Positions 38,071-58,847 are shown, counted from the first letter of the stretch. The stretch: 64,000 nt of DNA from Muribaculaceae bacterium (GCA_016290325.1 JAEETL010000005.1:5019-69018), one strand, 5' to 3'. Numbers and translations: made by a program. The notes: generated by a model from the sequence alone, not told the origin.

Positions 38071-39033
38071 ATGAAGATTAAAAGTTTACTTCTTTTTGCT
38101 GCCGCAGCATCGCTGAGCGTTTCCGCTTTCGCTGATGATCTGTCAACTGGTGAATTGGCATGGCTGTCCAGTGGCGAACCCGCCATGACTGGTCAAGCAA
38201 CCCAGGACCACTTCTTTGTTCGTGGTGACTATGACGACATGGGCGATATGCAGACCTATGACAACACCTTGAGCTTCAAGAGTGGCGCCGTGCAGACCAT
38301 TTGGTTCTATCTGAACGACGATGAGATCTATCAGAACGAGGCTGTTCAGGCACTCACTCCCATCGCTTACAACTCAGCAGGCGACCTCTATAACGAGATC
38401 ACTTATAACTCATTCCAGTTGGACATTTATCTGCCCGAGGGTCTTGAGTTCACCGTTAACGACGATGATGAGCAGTTTGCACAGGGTGACCGCATGCCCA
38501 ACACCAGCAACCTCACATTGGGTCTGAAAGAAGGAACCAAGGTGATTGACGGCAAGAACTACGCTGCCTATACCGTTGTAGTTTACAACTCAAACGCTTA
38601 TGGCTCACACCTGTCAGCCCAGACCGCTGGTAAGTACAGAGCAAATGGTGCCCTCAAGAAAGACTATACCGTGTTTGGTCTGTTCATTAAGAACAACAAC
38701 CAGGATGCTATCGAAGGTCAGATTGACGACATCGTTCTTGGTAACATGATTCTGAACTTCCGTGAGAGCGCTATCGCTGAGTGGAGCTCAAACGAGGGTA
38801 CTTTCTTCTATGGCACCGGTGGTAACGCCGAGACCCAGCGCTTCATGCTGTACAACCGCGTGAGCACCTTCGGTAGCGCCAACGTGGTTGAGAACCTGGC
38901 CCAGAAGACCATCAACAACGTGAAGTACTACAACATCGCTGGTATGGAGAACAACGAGCCCTTTGATGGCGTGAACATCAAGGTCGTTACCTACAACGAT
39001 GGTACCACCAGCACCTGCAAGGTGATCAAGTAA
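38071..39033 (+). CDS. secreted beta-sandwich protein with T9SS C-terminal sorting domain (cohesin-like pattern, unverified)
   Basis: Signal peptide. Tail NVKYYNIAGMENNEPFDGVNIKVVTYNDGTTSTCKVIK. The N-domain contains ..ITYNSFQLDIYLPEGLEFTV.. and ..DYTVFGLFIKNNN.. Confidence 0.75.
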   Translation: MKIKSLLLFAAAASLSVSAFADDLSTGELAWLSSGEPAMTGQATQDHFFVRGDYDDMGDMQTYDNTLSFKSGAVQTIWFYLNDDEIYQNEAVQALTPIAYNSAGDLYNEITYNSFQLDIYLPEGLEFTVNDDDEQFAQGDRMPNTSNLTLGLKEGTKVIDGKNYAAYTVVVYNSNAYGSHLSAQTAGKYRANGALKKDYTVFGLFIKNNNQDAIEGQIDDIVLGNMILNFRESAIAEWSSNEGTFFYGTGGNAETQRFMLYNRVSTFGSANVVENLAQKTINNVKYYNIAGMENNEPFDGVNIKVVTYNDGTTSTCKVIK

Positions 39034-39058: not shown

Positions 39059-39094
39059 AAAGTCCGCAAGCCAAATTGGCTGCGGACTTTTTTA
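39059..39094 (+). terminator. rho-independent terminator between convergent genes
   Basis: AAAGTCCGCA...TGCGGACTTT stem followed by TTTTTTATT. Confidence 0.6.
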
Positions 39095-39097
39095 TTG

Positions 39098-40990
39098 TCA
39101 CATCTTGTGTTGACCAACGAGCCAGTGGTCCTTTGCCAGTGACTTGTCAGGAGGTGGAGTGCTGGGGTTGATACGCTTGTCCTGGATAAGCAACAGACCG
39201 ATGGCGCGGGTCATGAGGATGTCATCATGTTTGCCCGAGCGCGCACCATAGCGCCCCTTACGTTCCTCATAGTCACGCATCTCGTTCACCGCCTCGATGT
39301 CACGCTCCACATAGGAGTTTTTCCTCAAAGCGGCAATTAGGGCAACAATGGCCTCGCCCTTGGTCTTCACGTTAGTGTGGAAACCCAATTTGTGTGGCCC
39401 GCGTTGATACACATTGCTATAAACCGCATGAACCTTTTGCAGGATATAGTCGCTCTCCCCTGCCCTTGCCGCCTCGTTAGTGAGGGTATTGCTCTCCACA
39501 GCGAGCAGGGCATTGTTATAATACTTCGACAACTGCATCGCCTTCCACGCCAACAAGTCATGGTCAATGTGACCTCGCCACTGGGCGACAATGGCATGTT
39601 TACAGCCCTGGCCTCCCAGGCGCCACACGGCGATCACCGAGTAGTCACTGCTGTCAGCCCTGCCTCCCACATCAACCACGGTTAAATACTTCACCACGAC
39701 AGGAGAATCCCGTTCAGGGTATTCCCACACCTTGAGATGCCCGCCCAGTTCCTTGACCAAATGAATGCCGCTCTTGGCCTCATTGCCGCTCAAGCCCTCG
39801 CCTTGGATATCACCCACAAGCAATGGTTCCGTCGAGCAACCTTCTTCCAATCGGTCAAGATAATCGGTAGGGAAAGGATTGAAACCGGTCGCCGTGAAAG
39901 CCTCGCTGGCAGTGCTCGGATATTCGGCCATCATTAGTTCATGGCTGCGATACTCACGCCGCTTTTGATGATACCAGTTGATCTGCTCCAGCGTGCAACC
40001 GTCTTCATATAATTTGTGTTCATATTCGTCCATCTGCTCCCACAACGCTTGAGCGTCATCCACCGCCACCGAGTAAATGCCTATCTCGCGCCACGGCACA
40101 AATATCGGGGCCTTATCGCTGCGACCCATTTGGGCGCGAAGCCACTCGTCGTGAAAGTAGTCGCCCACGCCATTGGCCGTGGATTCAAGCACGATAACCG
40201 TCTCGGGTTTCAGGGCAATGCTGCCACACACGCTGCGCACCACCTCGTCAGGGTTATGCATCACGCTCGACTGCCAGAATGCCACCTCGCTCAGATGGGC
40301 CATTGAAATGTCATAGCCTCTCACGGCATCCTCGCTGCGTGAGCTGCCAGTGAGAACCAAACATTCGCGCGCCTCAATCTGCTGGACATTGGGCTGGCCT
40401 TCAAGTTTGGTGAAAACCAACCGTTCGCCATCTTCAATCAGTTCACGGGGATAATGGCGCAGCATCAGGTTATACATCCGCTTGATGCTCTTGCTCGTCG
40501 CGTGCAGGTGACCACATATAAGGCTGTTCCAGCCCTTGTGGCGCACGAGCTGCATCCATGCCAGGTACATTTGCACCAGGGTTGAACCACCCCACTGACG
40601 CGCCTTAAGCAGAATCACCCTCACCGGCTTTCCTGCCGCCCGCTGTTCCTCCATCACGCCCAACAGGCGGCGTTGGGGACGATTAAGAATGAGCGGCACA
40701 TTACGGCCGCTCATCTTGTCCTTGATGGTCACGCAACGGGCACACCAGAACTCAAAATCCTCCTTGATGCGCTGCCGTTCTTGTTCCAACGGTTCCAACT
40801 TGGCATAATCAGGACACGCCTGCAACACCGCGCGGGGCACATGACAGTCGCCAACCGCCACGCGGTCACCCCAACAACCCACGCCCGCCAGTGGGTCATA
40901 GCGGTCACGGGCGAGCATGCTTTTACGGCGCTCGTTCTCGATGAGCACCGCCTCCAGAGTGATAGCTCTCTTTTCCATGCTATTTCTCAT
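39098..40990 (-). CDS. phage terminase large subunit-like ATPase/nuclease (orphan)
   Basis: Walker A-like LLKARQWGGST, Walker B-like MAHLSEVAFW, coupling motif VLESTANG. RNase H-like nuclease acidic residues are in VVDVGGRADSSDYSVIAVW, LLAVESN and GKHDDILMT. The start ATG 40990 overlaps the upstream stop by 11 nt (alternative ATG 40978). Confidence 0.7.
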   Translation of the reverse strand: MRNSMEKRAITLEAVLIENERRKSMLARDRYDPLAGVGCWGDRVAVGDCHVPRAVLQACPDYAKLEPLEQERQRIKEDFEFWCARCVTIKDKMSGRNVPLILNRPQRRLLGVMEEQRAAGKPVRVILLKARQWGGSTLVQMYLAWMQLVRHKGWNSLICGHLHATSKSIKRMYNLMLRHYPRELIEDGERLVFTKLEGQPNVQQIEARECLVLTGSSRSEDAVRGYDISMAHLSEVAFWQSSVMHNPDEVVRSVCGSIALKPETVIVLESTANGVGDYFHDEWLRAQMGRSDKAPIFVPWREIGIYSVAVDDAQALWEQMDEYEHKLYEDGCTLEQINWYHQKRREYRSHELMMAEYPSTASEAFTATGFNPFPTDYLDRLEEGCSTEPLLVGDIQGEGLSGNEAKSGIHLVKELGGHLKVWEYPERDSPVVVKYLTVVDVGGRADSSDYSVIAVWRLGGQGCKHAIVAQWRGHIDHDLLAWKAMQLSKYYNNALLAVESNTLTNEAARAGESDYILQKVHAVYSNVYQRGPHKLGFHTNVKTKGEAIVALIAALRKNSYVERDIEAVNEMRDYEERKGRYGARSGKHDDILMTRAIGLLLIQDKRINPSTPPPDKSLAKDHWLVGQHKM

Positions 40991-42968
40991 TGATAAGCGT
41001 GGGCAACAAGAGGGTGCCAGTGGTTGCCATACCCGACATCTGCATCCTCAAGGTACGTGCCGGCACCAGGATGGGTGCAGTAGCCAGCGGTTGATCGATG
41101 ATGCCCGTCACATTAATAAGACTCACGTCGCGGTCAATAGCCATGATGCCCCATTGACCCGTGACCCGCAATGTCAAGTCAGCTCCCGCGCTCGACAGGT
41201 GCCACACAATACGTCTAGCCTTTCTTGACATCAGCGGGGACAACGCGATGGGATGACTGTGCCACTTCACGGACACCTCGACGGCCTCTTCCCGTTCCAA
41301 ATCCAACAAACTGCCCGTGTCGCTCACTGCCACAGCGTGCAAGGGATCACTGTAGAGGCTTGCAGCATCAATAGTGCGATCGCTCATCGCTCCGCTGGCC
41401 ATCATCGCCACGGGATAGCCCCGCGACGGCAAGAGCCACAATTCATTGTAAGCATTACACCAAGCCATCGCAATATATGAGACATGATGCTGGCACACGG
41501 TCACCCGCGATGCCTGCAAGCGGCATAGGTGCCCATGACGAGAAATGAACCAAATGTCACCCCCGCCCTCAACCGGCGGCACGTCGGCAGCGATAACCGT
41601 GCGATCAACAAGGCGCGCCTCGCCTAATGTTCCTGTAGAACGCTGCGGAATCGCAAAAATACCGTCATCGGTAAACAGATAGACCGGATAACGGCCAAAG
41701 CCGCCCGAATACAGTGGTTTAGTGACAACAGCCATTGCTAACGGCGTTGCGCCCGCCACGATTTGACTATGGGATTGTGCCATTGCATTGCCTGGAGCCG
41801 AAACGACGACTTCACCGGCCGATGTGCAACAATAAAGCCTACCACTGGCAGCAGTTGAGCAAACCACGCCATTCAACCGAGTCATCGCTCCGATAGTGGC
41901 ACATTGGGCTGAGGTGAGCGACAACTGCTCAACAGGAGCAGCAAAATCACCGCCAGAAAGGGCAGCTGTTGCCGGGGCAGTGGCGACGAGCCGCCATGGC
42001 GAGGAATTTAACTGACGTGTGATCGCATCCGGGCTCAAATGGGATAGCCCCATTTCCAATATATACTCGCGTTCACCTTCGGTACGTGTGATGCAGCGAT
42101 AATCCAGCGAACGGCTCGACGAGAGCAGACGGGCAGCATCGGTGGCAAACACGTCGATACTCTTGACGAGCGGCAACCACTCAGGCGAGATGCCACTTGT
42201 CACATCTACCGTCAAGGAATAATGTGTCAACGCGAGGGTTGTGTTTTCAGTTCCTGTGAATCCGCTGTTGTTATTCACCACTTGGGCAGCAATGCGGTCA
42301 GCATTGGCAAGGGTCTCATCACCCACTCTAACGGGTTCACTCATCCATAAATAGGAATCATCTTGCAGGCGCACTGCCCATCTCACCAGCATGGGACCGA
42401 CATGATGCCCATCGGCAACCGCATCGGCATTCAGGGCATTCCATACCGCTCGCAACTGTCGTTCCAAGCCTCTGGCATCGGCATCGGCAAGCGGAGCCTG
42501 CCATCGGCTATAGGGCGCAGCAAATGAATATGCTCCCACATCAGCGCGAGTGACCGCAGTTGCCGCGCTGAATGCCAACGATGGCACCGCTTCGTCGGGT
42601 TCCAATACTGTCCACTCACCCTCAAACTGTGACAGATAAGTCAACCCACCGGAAGCCACCACAACAATCACCTCGCCGATGAGATATGCGCCTTTAATCG
42701 CGCCCTCGACAGTGGCAACAGGTTGTCCATCGATTTTTACCGTCGTTTGGCTTGCGGTCACAATATGCTCGCCCGTCATGAGCAGCAAACGTTCGCCTGG
42801 CGTGATAGCGCCCACCGTAGCGGGAACGCCTGTCACCTGTAGCGAGAGTTCTTGCTCACGCACATTCTGGGCCAGCACGGCCTCGCCTAAACGTGCCGCC
42901 TCGCCATTGGCGTGCGGCACCATCGCCTTGGGAACGACCAGGGTTTCTTTGAAATTGTGTTTCTTCAT
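40980..42968 (-). CDS. 662-aa signal-less beta-rich protein of unknown function (possible beta-propeller repeats)
   Basis: The start is set to ATG 42968 (MKKHNFKETL), 42 nt after a TAttTTTG box. Recurrent hydrophobic-strand/Gly turns occur (GRLYCCTSAGEVVV, YPVYLFTDDGIFAI, GDIWFISRHGHLCRL). No family recognised. Confidence 0.6.
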   Translation of the reverse strand: MKKHNFKETLVVPKAMVPHANGEAARLGEAVLAQNVREQELSLQVTGVPATVGAITPGERLLLMTGEHIVTASQTTVKIDGQPVATVEGAIKGAYLIGEVIVVVASGGLTYLSQFEGEWTVLEPDEAVPSLAFSAATAVTRADVGAYSFAAPYSRWQAPLADADARGLERQLRAVWNALNADAVADGHHVGPMLVRWAVRLQDDSYLWMSEPVRVGDETLANADRIAAQVVNNNSGFTGTENTTLALTHYSLTVDVTSGISPEWLPLVKSIDVFATDAARLLSSSRSLDYRCITRTEGEREYILEMGLSHLSPDAITRQLNSSPWRLVATAPATAALSGGDFAAPVEQLSLTSAQCATIGAMTRLNGVVCSTAASGRLYCCTSAGEVVVSAPGNAMAQSHSQIVAGATPLAMAVVTKPLYSGGFGRYPVYLFTDDGIFAIPQRSTGTLGEARLVDRTVIAADVPPVEGGGDIWFISRHGHLCRLQASRVTVCQHHVSYIAMAWCNAYNELWLLPSRGYPVAMMASGAMSDRTIDAASLYSDPLHAVAVSDTGSLLDLEREEAVEVSVKWHSHPIALSPLMSRKARRIVWHLSSAGADLTLRVTGQWGIMAIDRDVSLINVTGIIDQPLATAPILVPARTLRMQMSGMATTGTLLLPTLINEK

Positions 42969-43009
42969 GGTATATTTTATATTATTAATGTGTAAAAAAT
43001 CTTCGGGTG

Positions 43010-43017
43010 CAAAAATA
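43010..43017 (-). promoter_or_regulatory. -7 box (TAttTTTG on minus strand) of the two-gene 662-aa/TerL-like operon
   Basis: Reverse complement of caaaaata. Confidence 0.45.
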
Positions 43018-43070
43018 TCCCGATTCTCACCCCTTATGCAAGCACAAAAAGCAAAAGAGCGCAACAACAA

Positions 43071-43101
43071 CCCCGTGCTTGCTCATATCGCAAGCACGGG
43101 G
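43071..43101 (-). terminator. strong terminator of dockerin gene 2 (12-bp perfect stem CCCCGTGCTTGC / GCAAGCACGGGG)
   Basis: Read directly. It separates the dockerin gene from the TerL-like operon. Confidence 0.7.
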
Positions 43102-43132
43102 CCTCAATTCTTAATTCCTATATTTCACACAA

Positions 43133-44401
43133 TTACCATGCGTTGCTCAACAGATAGTCAACCAATGCACTAACATCGGCAATATTTACATTACCATCCT
43201 GATTGCAATCGGCATTCTCCAAAACAATGACACTGGTGTCACCACTCAGCAAATAGTCAATCAATGCACTAATGTCGGCAATGTTCACATTACCATCTCC
43301 GTTCACGTCGCCACGCACTACTGTGGAAGTGCCAGGAACCACAAACTGTGAGCCATCGGTAAAATAAAGCTTGTTAAGGTACCAACCCGGCCAATTCGTG
43401 TTGTTGTCACTGGGAATTGTCAAGCCCCAAGTAATCATTTGGGAGTTCACTTCACCTTCGTTTCCTGGATTGCCCTGGCTAGTGGTATTGTACCACACGC
43501 CATCTCCATTAGGATTCTCAGCGTCACTGATGTCGGCAATAGGCTGACCAGGGAATGACATCGTACCGTCGCTGCTAAGAATCATGTGGTCGCCAAGCCA
43601 TCCCAAACCATACAGGTTAGTCACATATACCGTGTCACCCGATTGACGCATATAAACATCGTTAGTATAGGTCACACCATTTGACTGGCCTTTGTACTCA
43701 TGTTTACCATTCGGTGTTTGCAATCTGGTATTTCGCATCAGCAATGAGATTGAGAAGGTCGTGTCATTGTACACCTGGGTGCGTCCTTTCACAGTCACGG
43801 TCGTCGTCTTGATATTCTCAATATAGAAGCAAAAGCCCTCATCAATCACGATTGATCCATCGTTTTCGATCCTGCCGGTCACGTCGGCAAGCGGGCCAGC
43901 GTTAACAAGCCAATCCTCGTTTACTACATAATAGCACAACGTGCTGTCAACAGTGGTAGTAGTAATGCCACTAGTGGTAGTCACGCTACCCGAGGTCGTG
44001 CCAAACGGCTCGTCACCCACTTCAAGAGTAACCTTACCAGTTGCATAGTTTACCTTGATTGGCTGCGTCACCTCATACATCGTGAAACCGCCCAACAGCA
44101 ACAAGTGCTCAGCATCATCGCCTGCTGCCACCGTTGTTGACCAGCCACCCGAGTAAAACAGGTCATTGGGCTCAACAGTCACGCGGCCTTGTGCATCCTC
44201 AGTCCAATCATAGAGTTGGAGAAGGCAGATTCGGCTACCTGCCATATCACCGGCATTCGCCCTTAATGAGGGAGAAACCTGGCACGACTGGCGCGATGTC
44301 TTAAGCGACTTGACAACATGGGAACGCTGCAACGGCACCCCTGCCAAAGAGCTCAAGCCCACAAACACACTTAATAGTACTAATATTCTTTTCATGTACA
44401 T
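43133..44401 (-). CDS. secreted protein with C-terminal tandem dockerin-type (EF-hand-like Ca-binding) repeats
   Basis: Signal peptide. GDVNGDGNVNIADISALIDYLLS and ADCNQDGNVNIADVSALVDYLLS fit the dockerin DxNxDGxxxxxD-helix consensus. No T9SS tail. Confidence 0.8.
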   Translation of the reverse strand: MYMKRILVLLSVFVGLSSLAGVPLQRSHVVKSLKTSRQSCQVSPSLRANAGDMAGSRICLLQLYDWTEDAQGRVTVEPNDLFYSGGWSTTVAAGDDAEHLLLLGGFTMYEVTQPIKVNYATGKVTLEVGDEPFGTTSGSVTTTSGITTTTVDSTLCYYVVNEDWLVNAGPLADVTGRIENDGSIVIDEGFCFYIENIKTTTVTVKGRTQVYNDTTFSISLLMRNTRLQTPNGKHEYKGQSNGVTYTNDVYMRQSGDTVYVTNLYGLGWLGDHMILSSDGTMSFPGQPIADISDAENPNGDGVWYNTTSQGNPGNEGEVNSQMITWGLTIPSDNNTNWPGWYLNKLYFTDGSQFVVPGTSTVVRGDVNGDGNVNIADISALIDYLLSGDTSVIVLENADCNQDGNVNIADVSALVDYLLSNAW

Positions 44402-44580
44402 TATATATAATTATGGTTTAACGCTTTGTTTCCAACTTGCAAAGTTACACATTTCGCAGCAAACCTCACAAACATTCTCATTAATTTCTCTTAATCAAGA
44501 AAAAATCCCCCTTAGCCACACATCTGTTCAATTCGTCACTCCATCCGATCGGTTAGCCCAACATGGCAATAAATAAAAAA

Positions 44581-44609
44581 TCAGGACCCGCAAAATGTGC
44601 GGATCCTGA
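44581..44609 (-). terminator. terminator of dockerin gene 1
   Basis: TCAGGACCCGCA / TGCGGATCCTGA stem (one mismatch) followed by a T-run on the minus strand. Confidence 0.6.
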
Positions 44610-44648
44610 CTTTATGGTTGTTAAGCTAGTTAGCTTAAGTAATCGAGA

Positions 44649-46055
44649 TTACTCAGCAGGCCATGCACCACTCAGCATGAAGTCGATCAATGCTGAGACG
44701 TCAGCAATGTTAACGGTACCATCCAGGTTGCAGTCAGCGTTATCATAGTTGATGCTGTCCCAATCCTGTGACAACAGAGCGTCGATAATAGCGCTCACGT
44801 CAGCGATGCTAATGCTTCCACTGTCGTCAGCATCACCACGCATGCCCTGAGGCTCGGGAGTGGGAAGTACGAACTGGTTGCCATTGGTCCACTTCAGAAC
44901 GTTGTTCTGGTAGCCATAGAGGAAGTGATAACCGTTGCAAGGCATGGTGTAGTCCCAAGTGATCTGGTCGGGAGTAGCGTTAGCCTCAAAGCCCCAAGTG
45001 TAGTCAACAATGTAACCCTCGTCATCGAGCTCATAGCTACCAACGGGGTAGAACATGCCGAGACCACCGCTGATCCAAGCATCGTTAACGTCCCAGATGG
45101 GGTTCGACAGATAGGTGACTGAATCTTCGGGATTAAACTCAGCGCAGTTGTAAACAGCCTTACCATCGCTGGTCAGAACCATGTAAGCGCTGGGCATACC
45201 ATAGTCCCACAGGTTGCCTACGAATACAGTGTCATTGCTCTGATACATGAACACGTTAGCGCTCTGTGCGCTACCATCCTGCTCCTTGTTGTAGGTGAGG
45301 ACACCATTACCGGTCAGGATCTCGGTGCCAACAAACATGTTAAGGGTCTCAACAGTGTCAATGCTAGAGAGGTTATTGTTTTGATATGTTTTAAACACTG
45401 CTTGCTCATAGAATACATAGTTGTCATCGAAGATGATTGAACCGTCGGTGTAGAGCGTACCCATACAGTCATTCTGCTCGTTGTTATCCCAGTAGTCCTG
45501 AGAAACAAGGATACTGTAGAGAATAGTATCGACACGATTGCGGCCAGAACCTGCTAATGTGTCATCATCGAGCAGGATACCCCATGACAGAGCAACCTCA
45601 CCAGTGGTGTAGTCGATGTCCAGAGGCAGATAGTAGGTGCTACCAGTTGTTGGGCTCCAATAAAGACCTGCGAAGTAAACGCCATCGCTGGCATCAGGAT
45701 ACCAGTAAGCACCGCTTCCAGCATAGAACGGATCAGCGGGAACAGGGCTTTCACCAGTGATGTCATAAGCATAGAGGAAGCAAACGCTGGGAAGACCAAT
45801 CATGTCGGCGTCACTCAACTGACGGGGAGCCTTGCGAACCTCAACCAGATTGTTGGGGGTGAAGCGGCTCTTCATGGGAGTCATGTTCTTGGCCTGCATG
45901 TTCATCACATTGCTGGTGAACTGGGTTGCGGCGGGAGTAGCCTTCATCACCATCTGGCCCTTGTTTGCCTGAACGAGGTCAGCCTTGTTAACATGCGGAG
46001 CTGCCATTGCGGTCAGACCAGCGCATACGAAAAGTAATGCTAAAAATTTTTTCAT
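44649..46055 (-). CDS. secreted protein with C-terminal tandem dockerin-type repeats (paralog of 43133-44401)
   Basis: Signal peptide. GDADDSGSISIADVSAIIDALLS and ADCNLDGTVNIADVSALIDFMLS. Shared core motifs (..SNDTVFVGNLW.. versus ..SGDTVYVTNLY..). Confidence 0.8.
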   Translation of the reverse strand: MKKFLALLFVCAGLTAMAAPHVNKADLVQANKGQMVMKATPAATQFTSNVMNMQAKNMTPMKSRFTPNNLVEVRKAPRQLSDADMIGLPSVCFLYAYDITGESPVPADPFYAGSGAYWYPDASDGVYFAGLYWSPTTGSTYYLPLDIDYTTGEVALSWGILLDDDTLAGSGRNRVDTILYSILVSQDYWDNNEQNDCMGTLYTDGSIIFDDNYVFYEQAVFKTYQNNNLSSIDTVETLNMFVGTEILTGNGVLTYNKEQDGSAQSANVFMYQSNDTVFVGNLWDYGMPSAYMVLTSDGKAVYNCAEFNPEDSVTYLSNPIWDVNDAWISGGLGMFYPVGSYELDDEGYIVDYTWGFEANATPDQITWDYTMPCNGYHFLYGYQNNVLKWTNGNQFVLPTPEPQGMRGDADDSGSISIADVSAIIDALLSQDWDSINYDNADCNLDGTVNIADVSALIDFMLSGAWPAE

Positions 46056-46373
46056 AAATCAATAATAAGATTTAGGAGTTAATAAATATTAGTTAAATAA
46101 AAAGGTTCTCTCTCAATTCTATTATAAAGGTTTACTTTCACTTTAAAGGACAGCACATAGCTGCACTTCTCAAAAAGATGCGACAAATTTACACCCATTT
46201 TTTGAATTCTACAACTTTTTAACACAAAAATTACTAACATGCTCACATTATTCCACAATTACAATAACGCCAAACTACAATTGATCTGTAAGGCGCCAAT
46301 GAAGTGGAACGAGGGACTTCACTCATTCATTGTGAAAACAGAAAAACCACCCATCTTTAAGGGTAGGCAGCCA

Positions 46374-46931
46374 TCAGTCGGCGGGAAGAAGCATGCCAGC
46401 AGCAACCTGGGCAGCAGCAGCTTGGCCCAAGGTCTCAGCAACGATGGCCAGGGCAAAGGGAGCAGCTGCGGCGGGACCGCGGCCCGTGACGATGTGACCA
46501 TCGACAGCAACAAGTGTTTGTGCCCAATTAACACCCTCGACCGTGTCTTCCAGTCCAGGATAGCACACAGCCTCACGACCATAAAGGATACCCAACGTTC
46601 CAAGTACCATAGCGGGCGAAGCACAGATGGCAGCGATCTTGCCTCCACGCTCGTCACGTTCGCTCAAGACCTCACACAATTCTTCATGCGCCGCCAGGTT
46701 GGGAGCGCCAGGAATGCCACCGGGCAATACAAGCCACTCGGCATCGCTGTAATCGTTATCAGCAAAGAGGCTGTCGGCTACAACGGTCACGCCATGGGCG
46801 CCCTTTACCTCCAAACCGGGATTAATCGAAACGGTCGTCACGGGCATACCGGCCCGACGCAACACGTCCACACTCGTCAAAGCCTCGATTTCCTCAAAGC
46901 CATCAGCTAAAAACACATACGTCTGTTTCAT
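46374..46931 (-). CDS. DJ-1/PfpI (ThiJ/YajL-like) family protein
   Basis: FLADGFEEIEA...AAICASP nucleophile-elbow Cys. Confidence 0.9.
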   Translation of the reverse strand: MKQTYVFLADGFEEIEALTSVDVLRRAGMPVTTVSINPGLEVKGAHGVTVVADSLFADNDYSDAEWLVLPGGIPGAPNLAAHEELCEVLSERDERGGKIAAICASPAMVLGTLGILYGREAVCYPGLEDTVEGVNWAQTLVAVDGHIVTGRGPAAAAPFALAIVAETLGQAAAAQVAAGMLLPAD

Positions 46932-47120
46932 GTCTATCTTATTAATAATATTGTGTTAGTTGTCCAGCTTGTCTGTATTTGGGTCAAAACTCATTTCAAA
47001 ATGACCCATAGAGAAGGCGAAATTAGCGTTTTTCCCCTAAAAAATCGGCCTATTTTAGAAAAAAAGTACTTTTTTTTGAAAAAAATCCGAATTTTGTTTG
47101 GTGGTTAAGAAAAAAGCAGT

Positions 47121-47128
47121 ACCTTTGC
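47121..47128 (+). promoter_or_regulatory. -7 box TAccTTTG upstream of tRNA-Val
   Basis: Exact match 22 nt before the tRNA 5' end. Confidence 0.45.
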
Positions 47129-47149
47129 ATCGCTTTTGACGGCAACATG

Positions 47150-47224
47150 GGCAGTTAGCGCAGTTGGTTCAGAGCATCTGCCTTACAAGCAGAGGGTCGG
47201 GGGTTCGAATCCCTCACTGCCCAC
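47150..47224 (+). tRNA. tRNA-Val: tRNA-Val (anticodon TAC); CCA encoded at 47225-47227
   Basis: Hand-folded cloverleaf: acceptor GGGCAGT/ACTGCCC, anticodon stem TCTGC/GCAGA with loop CTTACAA, T-arm GGGGG-TTCGAAT-CCCTC. There is one G-A mismatch in the D-stem. Confidence 0.9.
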
Positions 47225-47231
47225 CACACGA

Positions 47232-47261
47232 GTCTTGCACGATGTGCAGGACTTTTTTTGT
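47232..47261 (+). terminator. terminator after tRNA-Val
   Basis: AGTCTTGCAC-GAT-GTGCAGGACT followed by TTTTTTT. Confidence 0.65.
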
Positions 47262-47563
47262 TATATTCCGGTACTCCAGGTCAAGCCGTGATAAATTATG
47301 TGAAAAACGCTGAGTGATTGGGAAAATATGTGTAGCTTTGGAGCGAAATTATCAGGCCTATTGGGATAGCTTAGGTTTTAACGTTCAAATCATCATGGTG
47401 CTAGCCACCTCTTTGATAGCGTTTTTTCACCTGCTGAACATTTCATACATTAATCCCCACCTTTCATCCAATATGGCCTGAAACATTTGGCAATAGTGGT
47501 TTTTCAATCCTAATTTTGCATCATCAAAACAACGATTAACCACTATTTTAAAACTTAAGAATT

Positions 47564-48241
47564 ATGACAAACTTTACAACCCACAGTCAGGGCATCGCCC
47601 TGAACAAGCAGAGCGAAACAGTGAGCATCAACAAGCGCCCATTCGTTAGAGCATTACAGCTCGCCACTATGGCCGTTCTTATTTTTATCACAACAGCAAC
47701 ACCCGCCACAGCCCAAGTGAGATTGGGTGTGAGAGGAGGCCTCACGCTCAACAAGTTGCACTTTGACCGCGAGATCATCAACAGTGAGAACCGCATCGGT
47801 TACTCTGCCGGTCTGGTGCTTGATATCAACATTCCTGTCGTGGGGCTTGGCGTGGAAGCCTCAGCGATGTATACCCACCGCGATGACCGGCTCTTTGACA
47901 ACACCCACAACTACAAGCGTCACTACATCGAGATCCCGGTATATGCCCGATATCGTTTGACTTTACCTAAGGTAGAAAGGATTGTGGCGCCATATGTCTT
48001 CACGGGACCCAATTTCTCGATATTGTTCAAGGATGACGCCCCCACGAGCATCAACAACAGCAGGACATGCACGTCATGGGATGTGGGTGCGGGCGTGGAC
48101 CTGTTCAAGCACTTGCGCCTGTCAGCCACCTACGGCATCGGCATGTCCAAGGCGATGCAATACATTGACCGGGAATATGACGGTGGTGTCGTGAACGGAA
48201 AAGACAAGCACTGGACGCTAAGTGCCGCTTGGTTGTTCTAA
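47564..48241 (+). CDS. outer-membrane beta-barrel protein (OmpA-like N-barrel / PorT-type family)
   Basis: Signal peptide ending ATAQ. Alternating beta-strand pattern. C-terminal ..WTLSAAWLF. Confidence 0.7.
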   Translation: MTNFTTHSQGIALNKQSETVSINKRPFVRALQLATMAVLIFITTATPATAQVRLGVRGGLTLNKLHFDREIINSENRIGYSAGLVLDINIPVVGLGVEASAMYTHRDDRLFDNTHNYKRHYIEIPVYARYRLTLPKVERIVAPYVFTGPNFSILFKDDAPTSINNSRTCTSWDVGAGVDLFKHLRLSATYGIGMSKAMQYIDREYDGGVVNGKDKHWTLSAAWLF

Positions 48242-48286
48242 GCATCACTTCACTCACCCGAATGATCAATAACTTAAAAACCGACT

Positions 48287-48324
48287 ACCGGGTGTCCTGA
48301 ATGGAAGGGACATCCGGTTTTTTG
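48287..48324 (+). terminator. rho-independent terminator
   Basis: ACCGGGTGTCC...GGACATCCGGT stem followed by TTTTTT. Confidence 0.65.
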
Positions 48325-48391
48325 CCACAATCATTGAGGGCAATCAGATTTTTTGTGTAATTTTGCGCCACAATCATCTTTAATAAGGAAT

Positions 48392-49021
48392 ATGACAATG
48401 AAAAAAATAGCCTTACTGATAACCGCCTTGCTCATTGCCAGCACAGCCGCAATGGCACAGACGTCTTCGCGCTGGGGTGTGACGGCAGGTGCCAATTTCA
48501 ACAGCATCCACTTCAAGCAGAGTGATATCATACCCAGCCAACGGGCATGGGGGCCTCAAGTGGGTGTTATTGGTGAAATGAACTTCAGCGGCTTGGGTTT
48601 TGGTGTGGACGGATCTTTGCTCTACACCATGAAACAAGGCAAGGTCAACTATGGCGACCGCGTCATCTGGTCGTCCCTTGGCGCCGGCAACGAAAATGTA
48701 GCGATGCATTATATCGATGTGCCCTTACACCTCAAATTCCAGTTTCGCCGCTTGGGAGGCATGGAAACGACTTTCATGCCATTGCTTTATGCAGGCCCGC
48801 AATTCTCATTCCTAGCCCACGGCAGTCACAGCAACCTCAATTCCTATCCCTTTGTCAACGTCTATCTGGACATGGGAGCAGGCTTCGAACTGTTTGAGCG
48901 CTGGCAGGTAAGGGCTGGATACAATTTCTCAGTCGGTCAGTCGCTGCACACCAAATTACTTGACGATAACGTTGCTAAAAACCGCACCTGGTACGTCAAT
49001 TTGACTTATTTCCTGAAGTGA
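48392..49021 (+). CDS. outer-membrane beta-barrel protein, paralog of 47564-48241
   Basis: The start is moved to ATG 48392 after the TAatTTTG box (48358-48365). Signal peptide ..AAMAQ. Ends ..YVNLTYFLK. Confidence 0.7.
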   Translation: MTMKKIALLITALLIASTAAMAQTSSRWGVTAGANFNSIHFKQSDIIPSQRAWGPQVGVIGEMNFSGLGFGVDGSLLYTMKQGKVNYGDRVIWSSLGAGNENVAMHYIDVPLHLKFQFRRLGGMETTFMPLLYAGPQFSFLAHGSHSNLNSYPFVNVYLDMGAGFELFERWQVRAGYNFSVGQSLHTKLLDDNVAKNRTWYVNLTYFLK

Positions 49022-50031
49022 CCAAACGCTATGCTGCCATATTGATAGCCCTGGCGCTTGCTGTGGTGGGGCTTTTTGTGATGCGTGACCGCAAGCACTT
49101 CTATGCCCATGAGGGTGTGGTATGGACCACCGATTACCACATCACCTATGAGGCCGCTCACGACCTCAGCGACAGCATCCAAGCGATCTTCAACAACCTG
49201 GACATGAGCGTGTCACCTTACAACAAGGCATCGCTCATCACCGCCTTGAATGAGAACACCTCTATAAAGACCGACGCCTATATCCGACGCCTGCTGGAAG
49301 CCTCTTGGGCTATACACGGCAAGAGCGACGGCGCCTTTGACCCCACGGTAATGCCACTGGTCAACGCCTGGGGGTTTGGCTACAAGAGCGGCACCCTACC
49401 CTCGCGCTCTCAACTAGACAGCATCCTCAGTTTCGTGGGCATGGACAAATTGGCCCTACATGGTGATTCCCTAGCGAAACAGGACCCGAGGGTGATGCTG
49501 GATTTCAGCAGCATTGCTAAGGGACTGGCATGTGACGAAATAGGAAGGATGCTCGCTCGCAACGGCGCCCGCAACTGGCTTGTCGAGATAGGCGGCGAGG
49601 TCATGGCCAGCGGCGTGAACAAGCGCGGAACGACGTGGCAAGTATCGGTTGACATGCCAACAGATGAGCAGGACGATGTATCACACGAGAGCGCAATGGT
49701 ACTGGCCATCGACAGCGGTGCCGTCGCGACTAGCGGCAACTACCGCAAGTGGCGCATGGAAGGCGGCAACAAGCTATCCCACATCATTGACCCACACACT
49801 GGTGACAGCCACGCCGGAACACTGCTGAGTGTGACGGTGACCGCCCCCGATTGCATGACAGCCGACGCATGGGCAACAGCATGCATGGTAATGGGAGAAG
49901 ACCAGGTGAAACGCATGATGAATAATCGCAATGACCTGGGCGTGATGACCATCAGTGCCGATACCACCTCAGGCGCGCTCATCGTTTGGAGCAACCGCAC
50001 CTTTGCCGACCTCATCAACAGCCAGCGCTAA
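49018..50031 (+). CDS. apbE: FAD:protein FMN transferase (ApbE family)
   Basis: GAFDPTVMPLVNAWGFG, SGNYRKW, SHIIDPHTG. GTG start overlaps the preceding stop (GTGA). N-terminal membrane anchor. Confidence 0.85.
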   Translation: MTKRYAAILIALALAVVGLFVMRDRKHFYAHEGVVWTTDYHITYEAAHDLSDSIQAIFNNLDMSVSPYNKASLITALNENTSIKTDAYIRRLLEASWAIHGKSDGAFDPTVMPLVNAWGFGYKSGTLPSRSQLDSILSFVGMDKLALHGDSLAKQDPRVMLDFSSIAKGLACDEIGRMLARNGARNWLVEIGGEVMASGVNKRGTTWQVSVDMPTDEQDDVSHESAMVLAIDSGAVATSGNYRKWRMEGGNKLSHIIDPHTGDSHAGTLLSVTVTAPDCMTADAWATACMVMGEDQVKRMMNNRNDLGVMTISADTTSGALIVWSNRTFADLINSQR

Positions 50032-50089
50032 TCCTTTTTTCCAGAACACATCAAATAATACTTATATCACAAAAAGGAGGTGTAACATA

Positions 50090-50260
50090 ATTGTTCACCC
50101 CAAAAAAAGAACCGCTCTAACGAGCGGGAAAACTTGTGCAAAAGCCATTAAGTTTACTTCAATGGCTGAGGTGCCGCCAAGTTTCGGGAAATTAAAACAA
50201 ATATGTATAATTTCCCGTGCGTAGCACGGTTAAACATTACGACTTTGAGATGACATAGCC
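50090..50260. repeat. MITE-like structured element, copy B (about 170 bp, inverted relative to copy A, degenerate termini)
   Basis: The reverse complement aligns with 3614-3850 over its whole length apart from a shorter AT-rich core and a 5-nt gap. It lies between convergent genes. Confidence 0.7.
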
Positions 50261-50306
50261 CTTTTGCTATTTCTCAATATAAGTCGCCTAGAACATCTTA
50301 ATTCTT

Positions 50307-51071
50307 TTATTGGGCAATGATGAGCTCGATGCCCAAATCCTCAATCTTTTTAATGGTTTTTGGCGAGATGCCAGCATCGGTGATAATCAGGTCTACGGCA
50401 TCGATATCGGCAATTTTCGCGAACCCCCTCCTACCGAACTTGGTGCTGTCGGCCAGCACAATGGTCTTTTGGGCAGCGGCGATCATCTTCTGGTTAAGTT
50501 CCGCCTCGCGCATCTCGGTGGTCGTGATGCCAAACTCCAGGTCGATACCGTCAACGCCCAAATACAGCTTGCTGAAAGAGCAGCGGTCAAGGATGCGCGA
50601 CGCATACTCGCCAACAACCGACAAACTGCTGTGGCGCAAGTGGCCGCCCAACTGCACAATATCAATGTTCTCATGCTCAGACAGGATGTTGCTCACCGGC
50701 AGCGACGCCGACACAACCGTTAGTTTGTGAATGGGCACGATATTGCGGGCCAGGGCGTGCACCGTCGTTCCCGAGGCGATGCAGATGCTGTCATTGCGGG
50801 TGATGAGTCGAGCAGCCTCACGTCCGATAGCATGTTTCTCGTCGGTAGCGAGCTTTTCCTTCTCGTTCACCGACCTGTTATTGATATATGGATTGATGAG
50901 CACAGCCTTGCCGTGGCTACGATACAGTTTGTCACTCTTTTCCAGTTCGGTAAGATCCTTGCGAATAGTTACCGCCGACACATCAAGCAGTTTCACGAGA
51001 TCGGAGACCATGACCGACCCGTGCTTGATGAGTTCCTCCATTATCATTTCGTGACGTTGTTCTTTCGTCAT
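50307..51071 (-). CDS. glpR: DeoR/GlpR family transcriptional repressor
   Basis: N-terminal HTH (ELIKHGSVMVSDLVKLLDVSAVTIRKDLTELE) plus a DeoR C-terminal sugar-phosphate sensor. The start is set to ATG 51071. It is divergent from glpA. Confidence 0.8.
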   Translation of the reverse strand: MTKEQRHEMIMEELIKHGSVMVSDLVKLLDVSAVTIRKDLTELEKSDKLYRSHGKAVLINPYINNRSVNEKEKLATDEKHAIGREAARLITRNDSICIASGTTVHALARNIVPIHKLTVVSASLPVSNILSEHENIDIVQLGGHLRHSSLSVVGEYASRILDRCSFSKLYLGVDGIDLEFGITTTEMREAELNQKMIAAAQKTIVLADSTKFGRRGFAKIADIDAVDLIITDAGISPKTIKKIEDLGIELIIAQ

Positions 51072-51202
51072 GATGGCAGTTGGTTTTCTTTTTGACGAGG
51101 CAAAAGTAGGAAAAAGATAAATACCGACCAAATAAAATGACAAAAATCTTTCATTTTTCACCAAAACAAAACGAATCATAGATTGAAATAGCTATTTATT
51201 TA

Positions 51203-51226
51203 TTTCGTTTTAATATCAAAACGAAA
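51203..51226. promoter_or_regulatory. perfect 9-6-9 inverted repeat TTTCGTTTT-AATATC-AAAACGAAA, candidate GlpR operator
   Basis: Read directly in the glpR-glpA divergent region. Extra AACGAA(A/T) half-sites lie near 51166, 51240 and 51439. Confidence 0.45.
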
Positions 51227-51376
51227 CTATTTCTTAAAATAAACGAAATATTATTTTCGGTGAATCCACAAAATAAGATTCATTGTATTTTACTGATTTA
51301 TAACCAATTATTCGAATTACAACAAATGCCACCTAAAAAAGATGTGAAATTATTTTGTTATTTCAAAAAGATAATA

Positions 51377-51384
51377 TACCTTTG
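51377..51384 (+). promoter_or_regulatory. -7 box TAccTTTG of the glpA operon
   Basis: Exact match 48 nt upstream of ATG 51432. Confidence 0.45.
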
Positions 51385-51431
51385 CAGCGAAACCAGTTAA
51401 CAATGGTTATGCTACCTTAAAATTGCAATTA

Positions 51432-53075: not shown

Positions 53076-54319
53076 GAACCGACACCGTCATCATCGGCGG
53101 AGGCTTGAGCGGCCTCACCTGTGGCATCGCGCTCGCTAAGCGCGGTCAACGCGTCACCATCGTCGCCAGCGGCCAGAGTACGCTGCTGTTCAACGGCGGA
53201 TCGATGGAGTTGCTGGGCAATATTGACGGCATAGCAGTCACCACACCGTTGGAAGCCATCGGCACCCTGCCCCAGAGTCACCCTTACAGCAAGATCGGAG
53301 CAGACAAGATCGCCGGACTCGCTGATGAAGCCAAGCAGTTGCTTGCCGACGCCGGCATCGACATGGAAGGCAATGCTTCAGCTAACCACTGGCGCATCAC
53401 CCCAATGGGAGTCGCCAAGCCCGCATGGCTCACACTTAAGGAGAACTTGCGCATTGACGATCTCGACAAGCTGCCCGCCAAGCGTGTGGCTCTGATGTGC
53501 ATCAGGGGCTACTTTGACCAGCCCAATGGCATGTTGGCACAAGGACTGCGTGAACTGGGTTTTGATGTGAAGGCCATTGAATTCACCACCGACGACATCA
53601 CCTCATTGCGCCGCAGCCCTAGCGAGATGCGTGCCACCACCCTTGCTAAGCGACTCATCAGCAATAGCGCCCTACAACGCATAGCCGACCAAATCAACAA
53701 CCTGTCGGACGATGCCGAACTGGTGCTGCTACCTAGCGTATTCGGTCAGACCGACGCCACCGACTTCCAGACCCTGCAGTCAATGGTAAAGAAGCCGCTG
53801 CGCTTTGTTGCCACACTGCCGCCCTCAGTTGCAGGCGGCAGAATCCAAGCGCTGCTTCGCCACTACTTCAAGATGTTGGGCGGCAACTACCTGATGGGCG
53901 ACAGTGCCGTGAGCGGCCAGTTTGACGGCGACAAGTTACTGGGTGTCACCACTGCCAAGTTGGGCGACATGCCACTGAAAGCCAACAATTTCGTGCTCGC
54001 CAGCGGCTCTTTCATTAGCCGTGGACTCGTTGCCAACTACGAGCGCGTTTTTGAGCCCGTTTTTGACCTTGACGTGGATGCCGACGGCGAACGCGAGCAA
54101 TGGACCCGATTCGGCGTGCTTGAACCTCAGGCCTATTCAAGGTATGGCGTTGCCACTGATAACGACTTGCGTTGCATGAAGGATGGCAAACCCATCCAGA
54201 ACCTGCGGGCCATCGGCTCGGTACTGAGCGGTCATGACGCGGTCAAGATGGGTGACGGGACAGGTGTGTCAATGCTGACGGCACTCGCCGTGACTAAAGG
54301 TATCATTAGCGGCAAATAG
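53072..54319 (+). CDS. glpB: anaerobic glycerol-3-phosphate dehydrogenase subunit B
   Basis: DTVIIGGGLSGLTCGIALAKRG. ATGA overlap with glpA. Confidence 0.85.
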   Translation: MRTDTVIIGGGLSGLTCGIALAKRGQRVTIVASGQSTLLFNGGSMELLGNIDGIAVTTPLEAIGTLPQSHPYSKIGADKIAGLADEAKQLLADAGIDMEGNASANHWRITPMGVAKPAWLTLKENLRIDDLDKLPAKRVALMCIRGYFDQPNGMLAQGLRELGFDVKAIEFTTDDITSLRRSPSEMRATTLAKRLISNSALQRIADQINNLSDDAELVLLPSVFGQTDATDFQTLQSMVKKPLRFVATLPPSVAGGRIQALLRHYFKMLGGNYLMGDSAVSGQFDGDKLLGVTTAKLGDMPLKANNFVLASGSFISRGLVANYERVFEPVFDLDVDADGEREQWTRFGVLEPQAYSRYGVATDNDLRCMKDGKPIQNLRAIGSVLSGHDAVKMGDGTGVSMLTALAVTKGIISGK

Positions 54320-54417
54320 AATAGAATCATAGCCGCTTGATCGCCCTACGTCACATAAAGTAAAGATTTAAATAAGACTAGATAAGGATTTGATTGATGA
54401 TTTTTTAATGGGATATT

Positions 54418-55683: not shown

Positions 55684-55731
55684 TATCATTTCATTTAATC
55701 AATCAATAACAACTTAAAAACTTTAAGAATT

Positions 55732-57132: not shown

Positions 57133-57176
57133 TCATTAAAATCACAATAATTTATTCATTTAAAACCATTTAACTT

Positions 57177-58799: not shown

Positions 58800-58847
58800 T
58801 CAGGTGTAATAAACATTATCAATAACATTAAATCGACACAATTCAGT

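Follow-up and report, generated by a model that had tools for sequence, protein, structure and literature searches.

A captured podophage terminase and its tail nozzle/hub partner form a host-maintained two-gene unit in Muribaculaceae

A large terminase (TerL) coupled to a single partner gene, with no other phage genes around it, raises the question of what a phage packaging enzyme is kept for in a bacterial chromosome. Such a pair was located in a 64,000-nt stretch of Muribaculaceae DNA (GCA_016290325.1, JAEETL010000005.1:5019-69018; hereafter the window). The original prediction for this locus was a domesticated TerL, with the last piece of a degraded prophage as the main alternative. The prediction was partly borne out: "domesticated" suits TerL, which stands alone, is intact, has been passed on vertically, and evolves under purifying selection; the alternative was right as to phage origin and wrong as to degradation, the genes not decaying.

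Layout of the two-gene unit

Both predicted ORFs were recovered on the minus strand: (i) the nozzle/hub gene at 40980..42968 (662 aa from the ATG; the ORF called there was open as far as a TTG at 43070) and (ii) the TerL gene at 39098..40990 (630 aa, or 626 aa if the ATG at 40978 is the start). At the junction (40978..40990, minus strand; ATGAGAAATAG), the nozzle stop codon TAG occupied 40980-40982, and two ATG candidates were available to TerL: 40988-40990, giving an 11-nt overlap, and 40976-40978, leaving a 1-nt gap after the TAG. The database homologues of TerL started at the second ATG, 40978 (626-aa P0121; L013 2225/2227), and in relatives the junction lay between an overlap of 4 nt and a gap of 8 nt (-4 to +8 nt). 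The tight coupling proposed earlier therefore holds, while the exact 11-nt overlap, which requires the ATG at 40990, is one of two readings.

A -7 promoter box TATTTTTG (TAnnTTTG, Bacteroidota-type) was found by sequence at 43010..43017 (minus strand), 41 nt 5' of the nozzle ATG, in agreement with the original prediction; of 47 related loci, 36 also had a TAnnTTTG box no more than 160 nt upstream, in most cases between -42 and -72. A conserved block GCTTTTTGTGCTTG at 43039..43052 (minus strand), visible on inspection in most of the upstream regions of group A, is a candidate -33 region that would belong to the same promoter as TATTTTTG. The strong hairpins expected to bracket the pair were likewise present: (i) a 5' hairpin at 43069..43103 (minus strand; dG -29 kcal/mol, z -6.0, 0/200 shuffles equally stable), which terminates the upstream dockerin gene and sets the 5' limit of the unit, and (ii) a bidirectional 3' hairpin terminator at 39059..39090 (dG -21 kcal/mol on both strands, z about -5.4), which sits between TerL and a convergent 320-aa secreted-protein gene and forms the 3' limit. 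Nozzle and TerL thus constitute one predicted transcription unit with its own Bacteroidota-type promoter.

The genes adjoining the pair encode dockerin domains, as had been noted. The G+C content of about 60% estimated at first was too high: the module had 55.3% versus 51.3% for the window, and its composition is not anomalous because this value falls inside the 43-60% range of the housekeeping genes in the window. The composition of the module is ameliorated and its promoter conserved. A tRNA-Val gene, syntenic in group A, was located 4 kb upstream of the pair.

A large terminase and a tail nozzle/hub homologue

The 630-aa protein is a genuine large terminase of T4 gp17/Terminase_6 type. It matched phrog_2 at 5.4e-21 and T4 gp17 by profile in PDB at 1.4e-6, and by fold (Foldseek) T4 gp17 at 3e-17 and the RB49 nuclease with TMt 0.79; the nuclease domain was modelled at good confidence and matched the nuclease domains of RB49, G20c, and P22, while the Pfam Terminase_6N match was sub-threshold (15.4 bits vs the 22-bit cut-off). 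Its N-terminal ATPase carried Walker A K129-T137 (KARQWGGST), Walker B/catalytic H232-S234-E235 (HLSE), and C-motif E269-G274 (ESTANG), and its C-terminal RNase H-like nuclease carried acidic residues D440, E499, and D589/D590. The ATPase motifs and nuclease acidic residues were invariant in 25 homologues, and the acidic residues were constant across chromosomal and phage TerLs. Where T4 gp17 has the canonical Lys of Walker A and Asp of Walker B, this protein had Gly and Ser, respectively; the deviant pattern (KARQxGxST and HxSE) is common to functional phage TerLs, including those of Ss-VASD, Vibrio phage douglas, and Bacteroides phages, and is thus a subfamily trait rather than decay. TerL is intact, as first supposed.

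The 662-aa partner is a podophage tail nozzle/hub homologue of the T7 gp12/P22 gp10 class and has a relative in gp34 of the BKO1-TP3-like Bacteroides phages. It was correctly described at first as beta-rich and propeller-like without a signal peptide: its sequence had neither signal peptide nor membrane segment, and its AF2 model (pLDDT 87.8) was beta-rich and contained a propeller. The top 20 Foldseek matches of this model in PDB were all phage nozzle/hub chains, including those of HRP29, E1004, Carin-1, T7, SU10, P22, Sf6, GP4, and Pam1 (E 9e-13 to 3e-7, TMq 0.29-0.44), and the best match in BFVD had E 3.5e-28 and TMq 0.60, the BFVD matches including proteins named 'tail tubular protein B' and 'P22 Gp10'; because these TM scores are moderate, the domain arrangement may differ from that of the solved structures. 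Pfam and NCBIfam profiles gave no match to the nozzle, while phrog_32516 matched at 2e-12 and a custom gp34-family HMM, with shared motifs, matched the window protein at E 8.5e-23 and relatives at values down to 3e-53. The N-terminal ~30 residues were strongly conserved yet predicted to be disordered.

The original reading of the partner as a non-phage sensor or scaffold is not supported, given the nozzle/hub fold matches and the gp34 homology. A match of the partner to a known tail family had been named beforehand as refuting the original reading, and in this formal sense the match to the tail nozzle family counts against it.

Phage origin and host maintenance

The best phage matches of TerL were Bacteroides phages BKO1-TP3, BS-TP4, and BF1-TP2 (full-length identity 38-41%, with the N-terminal extension included), and the gp34 family of BKO1-TP3-like phages matched the nozzle in 104 of 104 chromosomal loci. 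Some of these phages (L104 and L106) displayed the gene order gp34-portal-TerL on one strand, gp34 adjoining the portal gene. The chromosomal TerLs all fell into one clade (100/100 bootstrap), implying a single capture. Both genes derive from a BKO1-TP3-like Bacteroidales podophage lineage and represent an anciently captured, host-maintained remnant. More than 520 IMG/VR contigs bore this TerL type, making host exposure to such phages plausible, and the nozzle family was not found in IMG/VR viral contigs.

Phage genes other than TerL and nozzle were not found in the 64-kb window, scanned with Pfam and PHROG on ORFs of at least 150 aa judged real genes and with 43 custom phage-family HMMs on all six-frame ORFs; the earlier statement that no other phage genes accompany TerL held in all these scans, except that the partner itself is a phage tail nozzle. 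The same 43 HMMs matched TerL and nozzle only over the 1.71 Mb comprising +/-10 kb around the pair in 104 loci, with no portal, capsid/MCP, scaffold, or TerS-candidate family near it; in comparison, most of 80 true phage loci with the same TerL type had portal and/or MCP no more than a few kb from TerL. A TerL confined to the vicinity of portal and capsid genes, or one with lost catalytic residues, had been named as the contrary outcome, and neither was observed. No integrase, replication, regulatory, or lysis genes were detected in the window or the flanks of the 104 loci, and no adaptor, fibre, or needle genes near the nozzle. The flanks consisted of housekeeping genes only, with neither prophage modules nor pseudogenised remains of them. 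PADLOC-DB v2 models matched none of TerL, nozzle, and three neighbouring proteins at E <= 0.01, and the pair was not within a defence island or mobile element.

At least 63 Muribaculaceae/Sodaliphilus species genomes carried the pair, most of them at one syntenic housekeeping locus, and about 45 species genomes shared the identical synteny ApbE-OMP-OMP-DJ1-dockerin-nozzle-TerL-sec320-DUF6048-DUF6452-GT2-DUF4199-HK. The carriers were bacteria of gut and rumen. Pairwise identities of TerL and nozzle were correlated (r = 0.94), and this correlation, together with synteny and monophyly, indicates that the two genes are vertically inherited at a host locus. Full-length ORFs were found in 58-61 of 63 genomes, and dN/dS was 0.06-0.08 for TerL and 0.14-0.17 for nozzle, at synonymous divergences of 0.35 to >2 and resembling the flanking genes; both genes are under purifying selection.

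The two genes were adjacent in three different orders/orientations and in several unrelated contexts, one set of lineages having the pair divergent from a RecX/ComF-like gene pair. One sub-lineage carried an 835-aa nozzle without TerL within 10 kb (L159, L161-L166, and L170), and TerL was 9.7 kb from the nozzle in L167; nozzle and TerL thus need not be co-transcribed.

Possible functions and comparison with known systems

Because the pair is kept intact family-wide with no other phage genes near it, it probably now serves the bacteria themselves. In phages, the portal vertex is occupied first by the TerL motor, while DNA is packaged, and then by the tail hub, which in T7 and P22 attaches through an adaptor. 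Since the host has no portal or capsid near the pair, the pair would most likely act in trans. We favour, tentatively, a domesticated portal-vertex pair acting on capsids encoded elsewhere, with interference with or piracy of related phages. The targets would be procapsids of phages akin to the donor, whether infecting or resident: host TerL may bind to the portals of these procapsids and then cleave or package DNA free of the phage's TerS-directed specificity, and host nozzle may cap the filled heads, displacing the phage's own hub. The outcome might be (i) defective particles, amounting to assembly interference that protects the population, or (ii) particles carrying host DNA, amounting to capsid piracy. 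We infer a possible defence role on this basis, and no known defence family matches the pair (PADLOC). Against interference or piracy stand the lack of PADLOC matches, a locus outside defence islands and mobile elements, and the absence of any gene-level sign of diversifying selection; stable vertical inheritance without diversifying selection is atypical of arms-race genes and more like a core domesticated function, e.g., a GTA. Moreover, an adaptor links nozzle to portal in T7 and P22 but none is encoded near the pair, and the nozzle stands apart from TerL in one sub-lineage.

The main rival, a serious though rather unlikely one, is a multilocus GTA-like viriform, in which portal, capsid, adaptor, and lysis genes would lie at other chromosomal loci and host DNA would be packaged. 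Vertical inheritance, purifying selection, an own promoter, ameliorated composition, and family-wide spread all suit it, real packaging would be the simplest account of an intact packaging ATPase and nuclease, and the separation of the pair by at least 10 kb in some lineages indicates that a multilocus organisation is tolerated. Nevertheless, portal, MCP, scaffold, and TerS candidates were never near the pair (104 loci, 1.71 Mb), known GTAs and the donor phages hold TerL beside portal and capsid (e.g., the GTA I operon), and the continued linkage of TerL and nozzle specifically would be left unexplained. To our knowledge, no GTA has been described in Bacteroidota, and none of podovirus type. 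A weak and non-specific point in favour of the viriform is that ~19% of the bacterial DNA carried by murine VLPs at baseline came from Muribaculaceae (10.64898/2026.07.08.737213).

A capsid-independent cellular DNA machine is improbable. Here the nozzle ring would be a portal surrogate on which the TerL motor/nuclease docks, and the complex would translocate or process DNA for a host purpose, e.g., end processing, uptake, or export; no genes other than these two are ever conserved together, their linkage survives rearrangements, the conserved, predicted-disordered nozzle residues 1-30 suggest a docking peptide, and RecX/ComF-like genes are divergent from the module in one set of lineages. However, that adjacency is limited to one context, the others being unrelated, loci with the nozzle alone exist, and the nozzle lacks both a signal peptide and membrane segments; we also know of no precedent for TerL activity without a portal. 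The specific proposal that the nozzle ring replaced the portal as terminase docking platform, yielding a capsid-free phage-derived DNA translocase/nuclease for cellular use, is a long shot; if true, no terminase before it would have been known to function in anything but virion assembly.

Neutral remains of a degraded prophage not yet deleted would explain why both genes are phage-derived and all other phage genes gone, but this very improbable reading is contradicted by the selection data (full-length ORFs in about 60 species, dN/dS 0.06-0.17, and invariant catalytic residues), and promoter, synteny, and linkage are maintained. A current mobile element whose other genes were missed (an intact prophage, a PICI, cf-PICI or P4-like satellite, or a defence island) is the least credible reading of all: the tRNA-Val gene 4 kb upstream could be an old attachment site, but neither the 64-kb window nor the flanks of 104 loci contained integrase, replication, regulatory, capsid, or portal genes, the flanking genes are conserved and of housekeeping type, the nozzle family was not in IMG/VR viral contigs, and PADLOC models gave no matches.

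The pair was also compared with known systems. Chromosomal TerL shared with phage TerLs (T4 gp17 type; BKO1-TP3, BS-TP4, and BF1-TP2) the two-domain architecture of ATPase plus RNase H-like nuclease, and with those of temperate Bacteroides phages LKARQxGxST, HxSE, ESTANG, the nuclease acidic residues, and a ~90-aa N-terminal extension; in contrast, its identity to the phage TerLs found did not exceed 43% (vs 47-98% within the chromosomal clade), and it was ~70 aa shorter than the phage enzymes, never beside portal, capsid, or TerS, and vertically inherited. The nozzle had the overall fold, including the beta-propeller, of T7 gp12, P22 gp10, Sf6 gp8, and phage gp34 (Foldseek probability 1.0, TM 0.3-0.6), and two sequence motifs in common with the gp34 family; it differed from phage gp34 (~880-900 aa) in its 662-aa length and an identity of only ~24% over 200 aa, and from podophage nozzles in having no adaptor, portal, fibre, or needle gene near and in its absence from IMG/VR viral contigs.

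Like GTAs (RcGTA, BaGTA, VSH-1, and Faecalibacterium GTA I), the pair consists of vertically inherited phage-derived genes under host control and purifying selection, with no replication/integration genes; in GTAs, TerL belongs to a head-tail cluster that includes portal and capsid, while here only TerL and nozzle are present locally. Pervasive purifying selection on prophage remnants has reportedly been described in enterobacteria, and as in domesticated defective prophages, selection retained remnant genes here after the rest of the prophage went; unlike those, the pair is a specific, recurrently linked two-gene unit conserved family-wide, not within a species or genus. Finally, the pair differs from satellites (PICI, cf-PICI, P4-like, and PLE) in having no integrase, replication or regulatory module, or mobility and in occupying a fixed chromosomal locus, but it resembles them (PICI TerS/Ppi, cf-PICI, and P4 Sid/Psu) as a partial virion-assembly set that would need a helper phage, which is the logic proposed here for the pair.

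Layout, promoter and composition of the pair

The locus was a two-gene podophage remnant composed of a tail nozzle gene (40980-42968, minus strand; 662 aa counted from the ATG) and, on the same strand, a large terminase (TerL) gene (39098-40990, minus strand; 630 aa). The nozzle/TerL junction read ATGAGAAATAGCATGG: the 11-nt overlap of the original prediction held with the first ATG of TerL, while an alternative second ATG at 40978 lay 1 nt past the TAG stop, and the homologues in databases started at this second ATG, giving a 626-aa TerL. Among relatives, the two genes overlapped by up to 4 nt or were separated by up to 8 nt, and they are tightly coupled under either start choice.

Two further predicted features were recovered: the promoter box TATTTTTG (43010-43017) and the strong hairpins flanking the pair (43069-43103, dG -29 kcal/mol, and 39059-39090, dG -21, both strands; z < -5 each). 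In 36 of 47 relatives, the 160 nt preceding the nozzle ATG contained a TAnnTTTG box, and the pair had its own predicted promoter, the likely source of its expression. A conserved upstream block GCTTTTTGTGCTTG (43039-43052, minus strand) was located about 20-30 nt 5' of the box, and similar blocks, seen by eye and not counted, preceded the box in many upstream regions of group A (chromosomal loci with the same syntenic arrangement as the window); this block could serve as a -33 element or bind a regulator. Three chromosomal loci (L022, L029, and L058) harbored short tandem repeats (such as CTGACAA and TAACCTTTAACC-like repeats) in place of the usual nozzle promoter region. The earlier figure of about 60% G+C proved too high: the module had 55.3% vs 51.3% for the window, in which ordinary genes had 43-60%. 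A foreign composition was ruled out, GC and GC3 being inside the host range, and the module displayed no compositional anomaly.

Assignment of the nozzle and terminase

Both proteins were annotated as hypothetical and matched no Pfam, NCBIfam, or PADLOC model. The first also had no PDB-sequence match, its assignment as a portal, capsid, or known domain being rejected on these searches, and its sole PHROG match was a family without assigned function. Its AlphaFold model (25 homologues) was confident (pLDDT 87.8, pTM 0.78), and the best 20 PDB matches of this model were all podophage tail nozzle/hub chains (E 9e-13 to 3e-7), coming from HRP29, E1004, Carin-1, T7 gp12, SU10, Pa223, P-SCSP1u, P22 gp10, Sf6 gp8, GP4, and Pam1, with generic beta-propellers ranking below them. 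The top match in the viral structure library was a 978-aa podovirus protein (E 3.5e-28, TMq 0.60), and the named matches included 'P22 Gp10 DNA-stabilising', 'stabilization protein', and 'tail tubular protein B'. tblastn with the nozzle gave gp34 of Bacteroides phage BKO1-TP3 alone (24% over 200 aa), and an HMM of the gp34 family, built from 82 phage loci, matched the window nozzle at E 8.5e-23 via a pair of motif blocks, LVRWAVRLxDDxY and PLYSGGFGRYPVYLFTDDGI. In two phages (L104 and L106), gp34 stood directly before the portal and TerL, a position that fits a tail-hub role. The first protein is thus assigned as a phage tail nozzle because of the structure comparison and the purpose-built phage profile together, the other searches alone being insufficient; the original suggestion of a possible sensor or scaffold was not upheld.

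The second protein matched PHROG 2 (TerL) at 5e-21, and its profile (25 homologues) matched T4 gp17 in PDB. Its AF2 model was moderate (pLDDT 69.5, weak in the ATPase part) and served fold assignment only: it matched T4 gp17 at E 3e-17 and the RB49 nuclease domain with TMt 0.79, followed by the T7, PhiV-1, G20c, D6E, P22, and Sf6 terminases. The lysine of Walker A and the aspartate of Walker B in T4 gp17 corresponded to Gly and Ser in this protein. The motifs were aligned with annotated functional terminases from Shigella phage Ss-VASD, Vibrio phage douglas 12A4, Manatee Spring podovirus, BKO1-TP3, and BS-TP4: LKARQxGxST, HxSE, and ESTA(N/E)G as well as the acidic nuclease residues D440, E499, and D589/D590 were invariant across these and the window TerL, and also in 25 chromosomal homologues. 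Loss or decay of the ATPase was ruled out, since bona fide phage TerLs of the same subfamily carry exactly these residues; the unusual motifs are a subfamily trait, being shared by functional phage terminases. The second protein is an intact terminase, as originally proposed from its catalytic motifs.

Genomic context, distribution and origin

The other window ORFs of at least 150 aa taken as real genes had housekeeping functions only in Pfam and PHROG scans, including transporters, oxidoreductases, a hybrid histidine kinase, MgsA, a TonB receptor, OMP barrels, dockerin proteins, and DJ-1/PfpI. A set of 43 gene-family HMMs built from the 82 phage loci, including portal, major capsid, small-terminase (TerS) candidates neighbouring TerL, scaffold-position genes, endolysin, and giant proteins, was run on the ORFs in all six frames of 1.71 Mb from 104 chromosomal loci. 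The sole families matched were TerL (86 loci) and gp34 (104 loci); portal, capsid, TerS-candidate, scaffold-position, and endolysin families had no match in these loci, and the predicted lack of other phage genes nearby was thus confirmed by both types of scan. In most phage loci, the portal and/or capsid lay a few kb from TerL.

Three neighbors were considered and left out of the module or its mobility: (i) two dockerin genes (43133-44401 and 44649-46055, minus strand), syntenic in group A, recurring in a few other contexts, and absent elsewhere; (ii) the gene of a 320-aa secreted protein (38071-39033, plus strand), convergent with TerL across a common bidirectional terminator, kept at the same position throughout group A (50-96% identity) and found there only, with no Pfam, PHROG, NCBIfam, or PADLOC match; and (iii) tRNA-Val(TAC) (47149-47226, plus strand), about 4 kb upstream of the module, which was ruled out as a general attachment site, being syntenic in every group A locus examined and absent from other contexts, and which may be an ancient attachment site of the donor prophage. 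Dockerin proteins with unrelated N-terminal parts (unknown domain, M6 peptidase, and BspA-type LRR) directly adjoined the pair in group A, and in several but not all other contexts the same adjacency occurred (L068 5057-7156 and 12012-14219, L072 6414-7967, L070, and L073); it may be coincidental, these genomes being rich in dockerin genes, or may point to a functional link.

Protein searches gave >120 clusters per protein, all full length and from Muribaculaceae MAGs (identities: nozzle 57-94%, TerL 69-98%). A scan of species-representative genomes gave 63 loci, mostly from rumen MAGs labelled Muribaculaceae or Sodaliphilus, with 'uncultured Prevotellaceae' among the older RUG labels. About 45 of the 63 were arranged exactly as the window: ApbE, two OMP barrels, tRNA-Val, DJ-1/PfpI, one or two dockerin genes, nozzle, TerL, the convergent 320-aa secreted protein, DUF6048, DUF6452, GT2, DUF4199, and hybrid kinase. 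In distant genomes (nozzle 35-45% identical), the pair was still adjacent within other housekeeping contexts, and nozzle-TerL order, TerL-nozzle order, and convergent arrangement all occurred; a location inside prophages was ruled out there by flanking SusD-like, peptidase, TonB-receptor, RecX/ComF, and dockerin genes. A nozzle subfamily of 800-835 aa included one branch in which TerL was either missing from the surrounding 10 kb or 9.7 kb away: an 835-aa nozzle stood between PhoH and cytochrome bd/PFK-type housekeeping genes without TerL within 10 kb (L159 10001-12508, L161-L166, and L170), and L167 had a TerL of the chromosomal clade 9.7 kb from the 835-aa nozzle on the opposite strand. In four loci of distant lineages (L063 8647-9952, minus strand, L065, L071, and L075), the pair was divergent from two DNA recombination/uptake genes, RecX and a ComF-like gene that combines a phosphoribosyltransferase with a double zinc ribbon. 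In one genome, an inserted IS200-like gene (Y1 transposase; L068 7446-7883, plus strand) separated TerL from a dockerin gene, and this insertion could be a driver of local rearrangements.

The closest phage terminases were those of BKO1-TP3, BS-TP4, and BF1-TP2, which are cultured temperate Bacteroides phages (PMC12694917). More than 520 IMG/VR contigs had the same TerL type, all ≤43% identical to the window TerL; the chromosomal terminases were 47-98% identical among themselves and formed one clade nested among gut phage terminases (neighbour joining, 100/100 bootstrap), and IMG/VR viral contigs yielded no member of the chromosomal nozzle family. This clade and the BKO1-TP3-like affinities point to a single capture of both genes from a BKO1-TP3-like podophage; independent captures at the separated or 'basal' loci L167, L174, L175, and L188 were ruled out by the TerL monophyly.

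The GenBank labels of these genes in the closest cultured phages were wrong: the large terminases of BKO1-TP3 (L001, PQ571269.1, 27873-29987) and BS-TP4 (L009, PQ571277.1, 12004-14100) were named 'tail spike protein', the small gene preceding TerL 'glycoside hydrolase' or 'rhomboid domain-containing protein', and the likely nozzle gp34 (882 aa, L001 7000-9648) 'hypothetical protein'. In BKO1-TP3, a reverse transcriptase adjoined a 2,638-aa protein, and a giant protein of about 5,500 aa annotated as DarB-like (42666-59327 of the record) adjoined the portal; the regions listed for these features were L001 13819-15309, 15403-23319, and 32667-40001 (minus strand).

Possible roles and comparison with known systems

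ORFs were intact in 58-61 of 63 genomes, the pairwise identities of nozzle and TerL were correlated (r = 0.94), and dN/dS against close relatives was 0.14-0.17 for the nozzle and 0.06-0.08 for TerL vs 0.03-0.15 for flanking host genes. The pair was captured once, passed on vertically, kept functional by selection, and usually left linked. In a close relative (L014 6460-8076 and 11735-12785), TerL was called at 538 aa and the neighbouring GT2 was split in two, probably metagenome assembly errors and not true pseudogenes.

A packaging motor/nuclease and a tail hub would make sense only at a portal vertex; there was no portal or capsid gene nearby, and therefore the head components would have to come from elsewhere. 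We tentatively favour action in trans, in which the host nozzle and TerL would engage capsids made by donor-phage relatives that infect the host or reside in it, as interference or piracy, because the retained genes are solely the two portal-vertex docking proteins, the pair stays linked through rearrangements, and gut viromes are rich in phages of this kind. The chief competing reading, a multilocus GTA-like particle, agrees with the stable vertical inheritance of the pair and with its location outside any defence island, but head genes were wholly absent near TerL in every lineage, and we consider it rather unlikely. A DNA machine working without a capsid is improbable, and neutral decay of a prophage leftover is contradicted by the selection data.

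If the pair does interfere with or pirate related phages, abundant gut bacteria would have a new anti-phage or transduction strategy that is fixed in their chromosomes; if the missing parts are encoded at other sites in the genome, the pair would point to the first GTA-like element in Bacteroidota; and if it works without a capsid, it would alter the view of what terminases do. Domestication of prophage remnants is generally known; to our knowledge, only whole modules (GTAs and tailocins) or satellite genes have so far been described as domesticated phage parts, and terminases are regarded as strictly virion-assembly enzymes. The databases and literature searched contained no description of a minimal nozzle-terminase unit shared throughout a bacterial family. 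Neither a prophage nor a satellite nor a known defence system, the unit cannot yet be called a GTA either. Its proteins belong to the TerL and podophage nozzle families by sequence and structure but, unlike those families, stand outside any virion module: a minimal motor and tail hub, held together across a major gut/rumen family without capsid genes, is an unusual domestication of phage genes.
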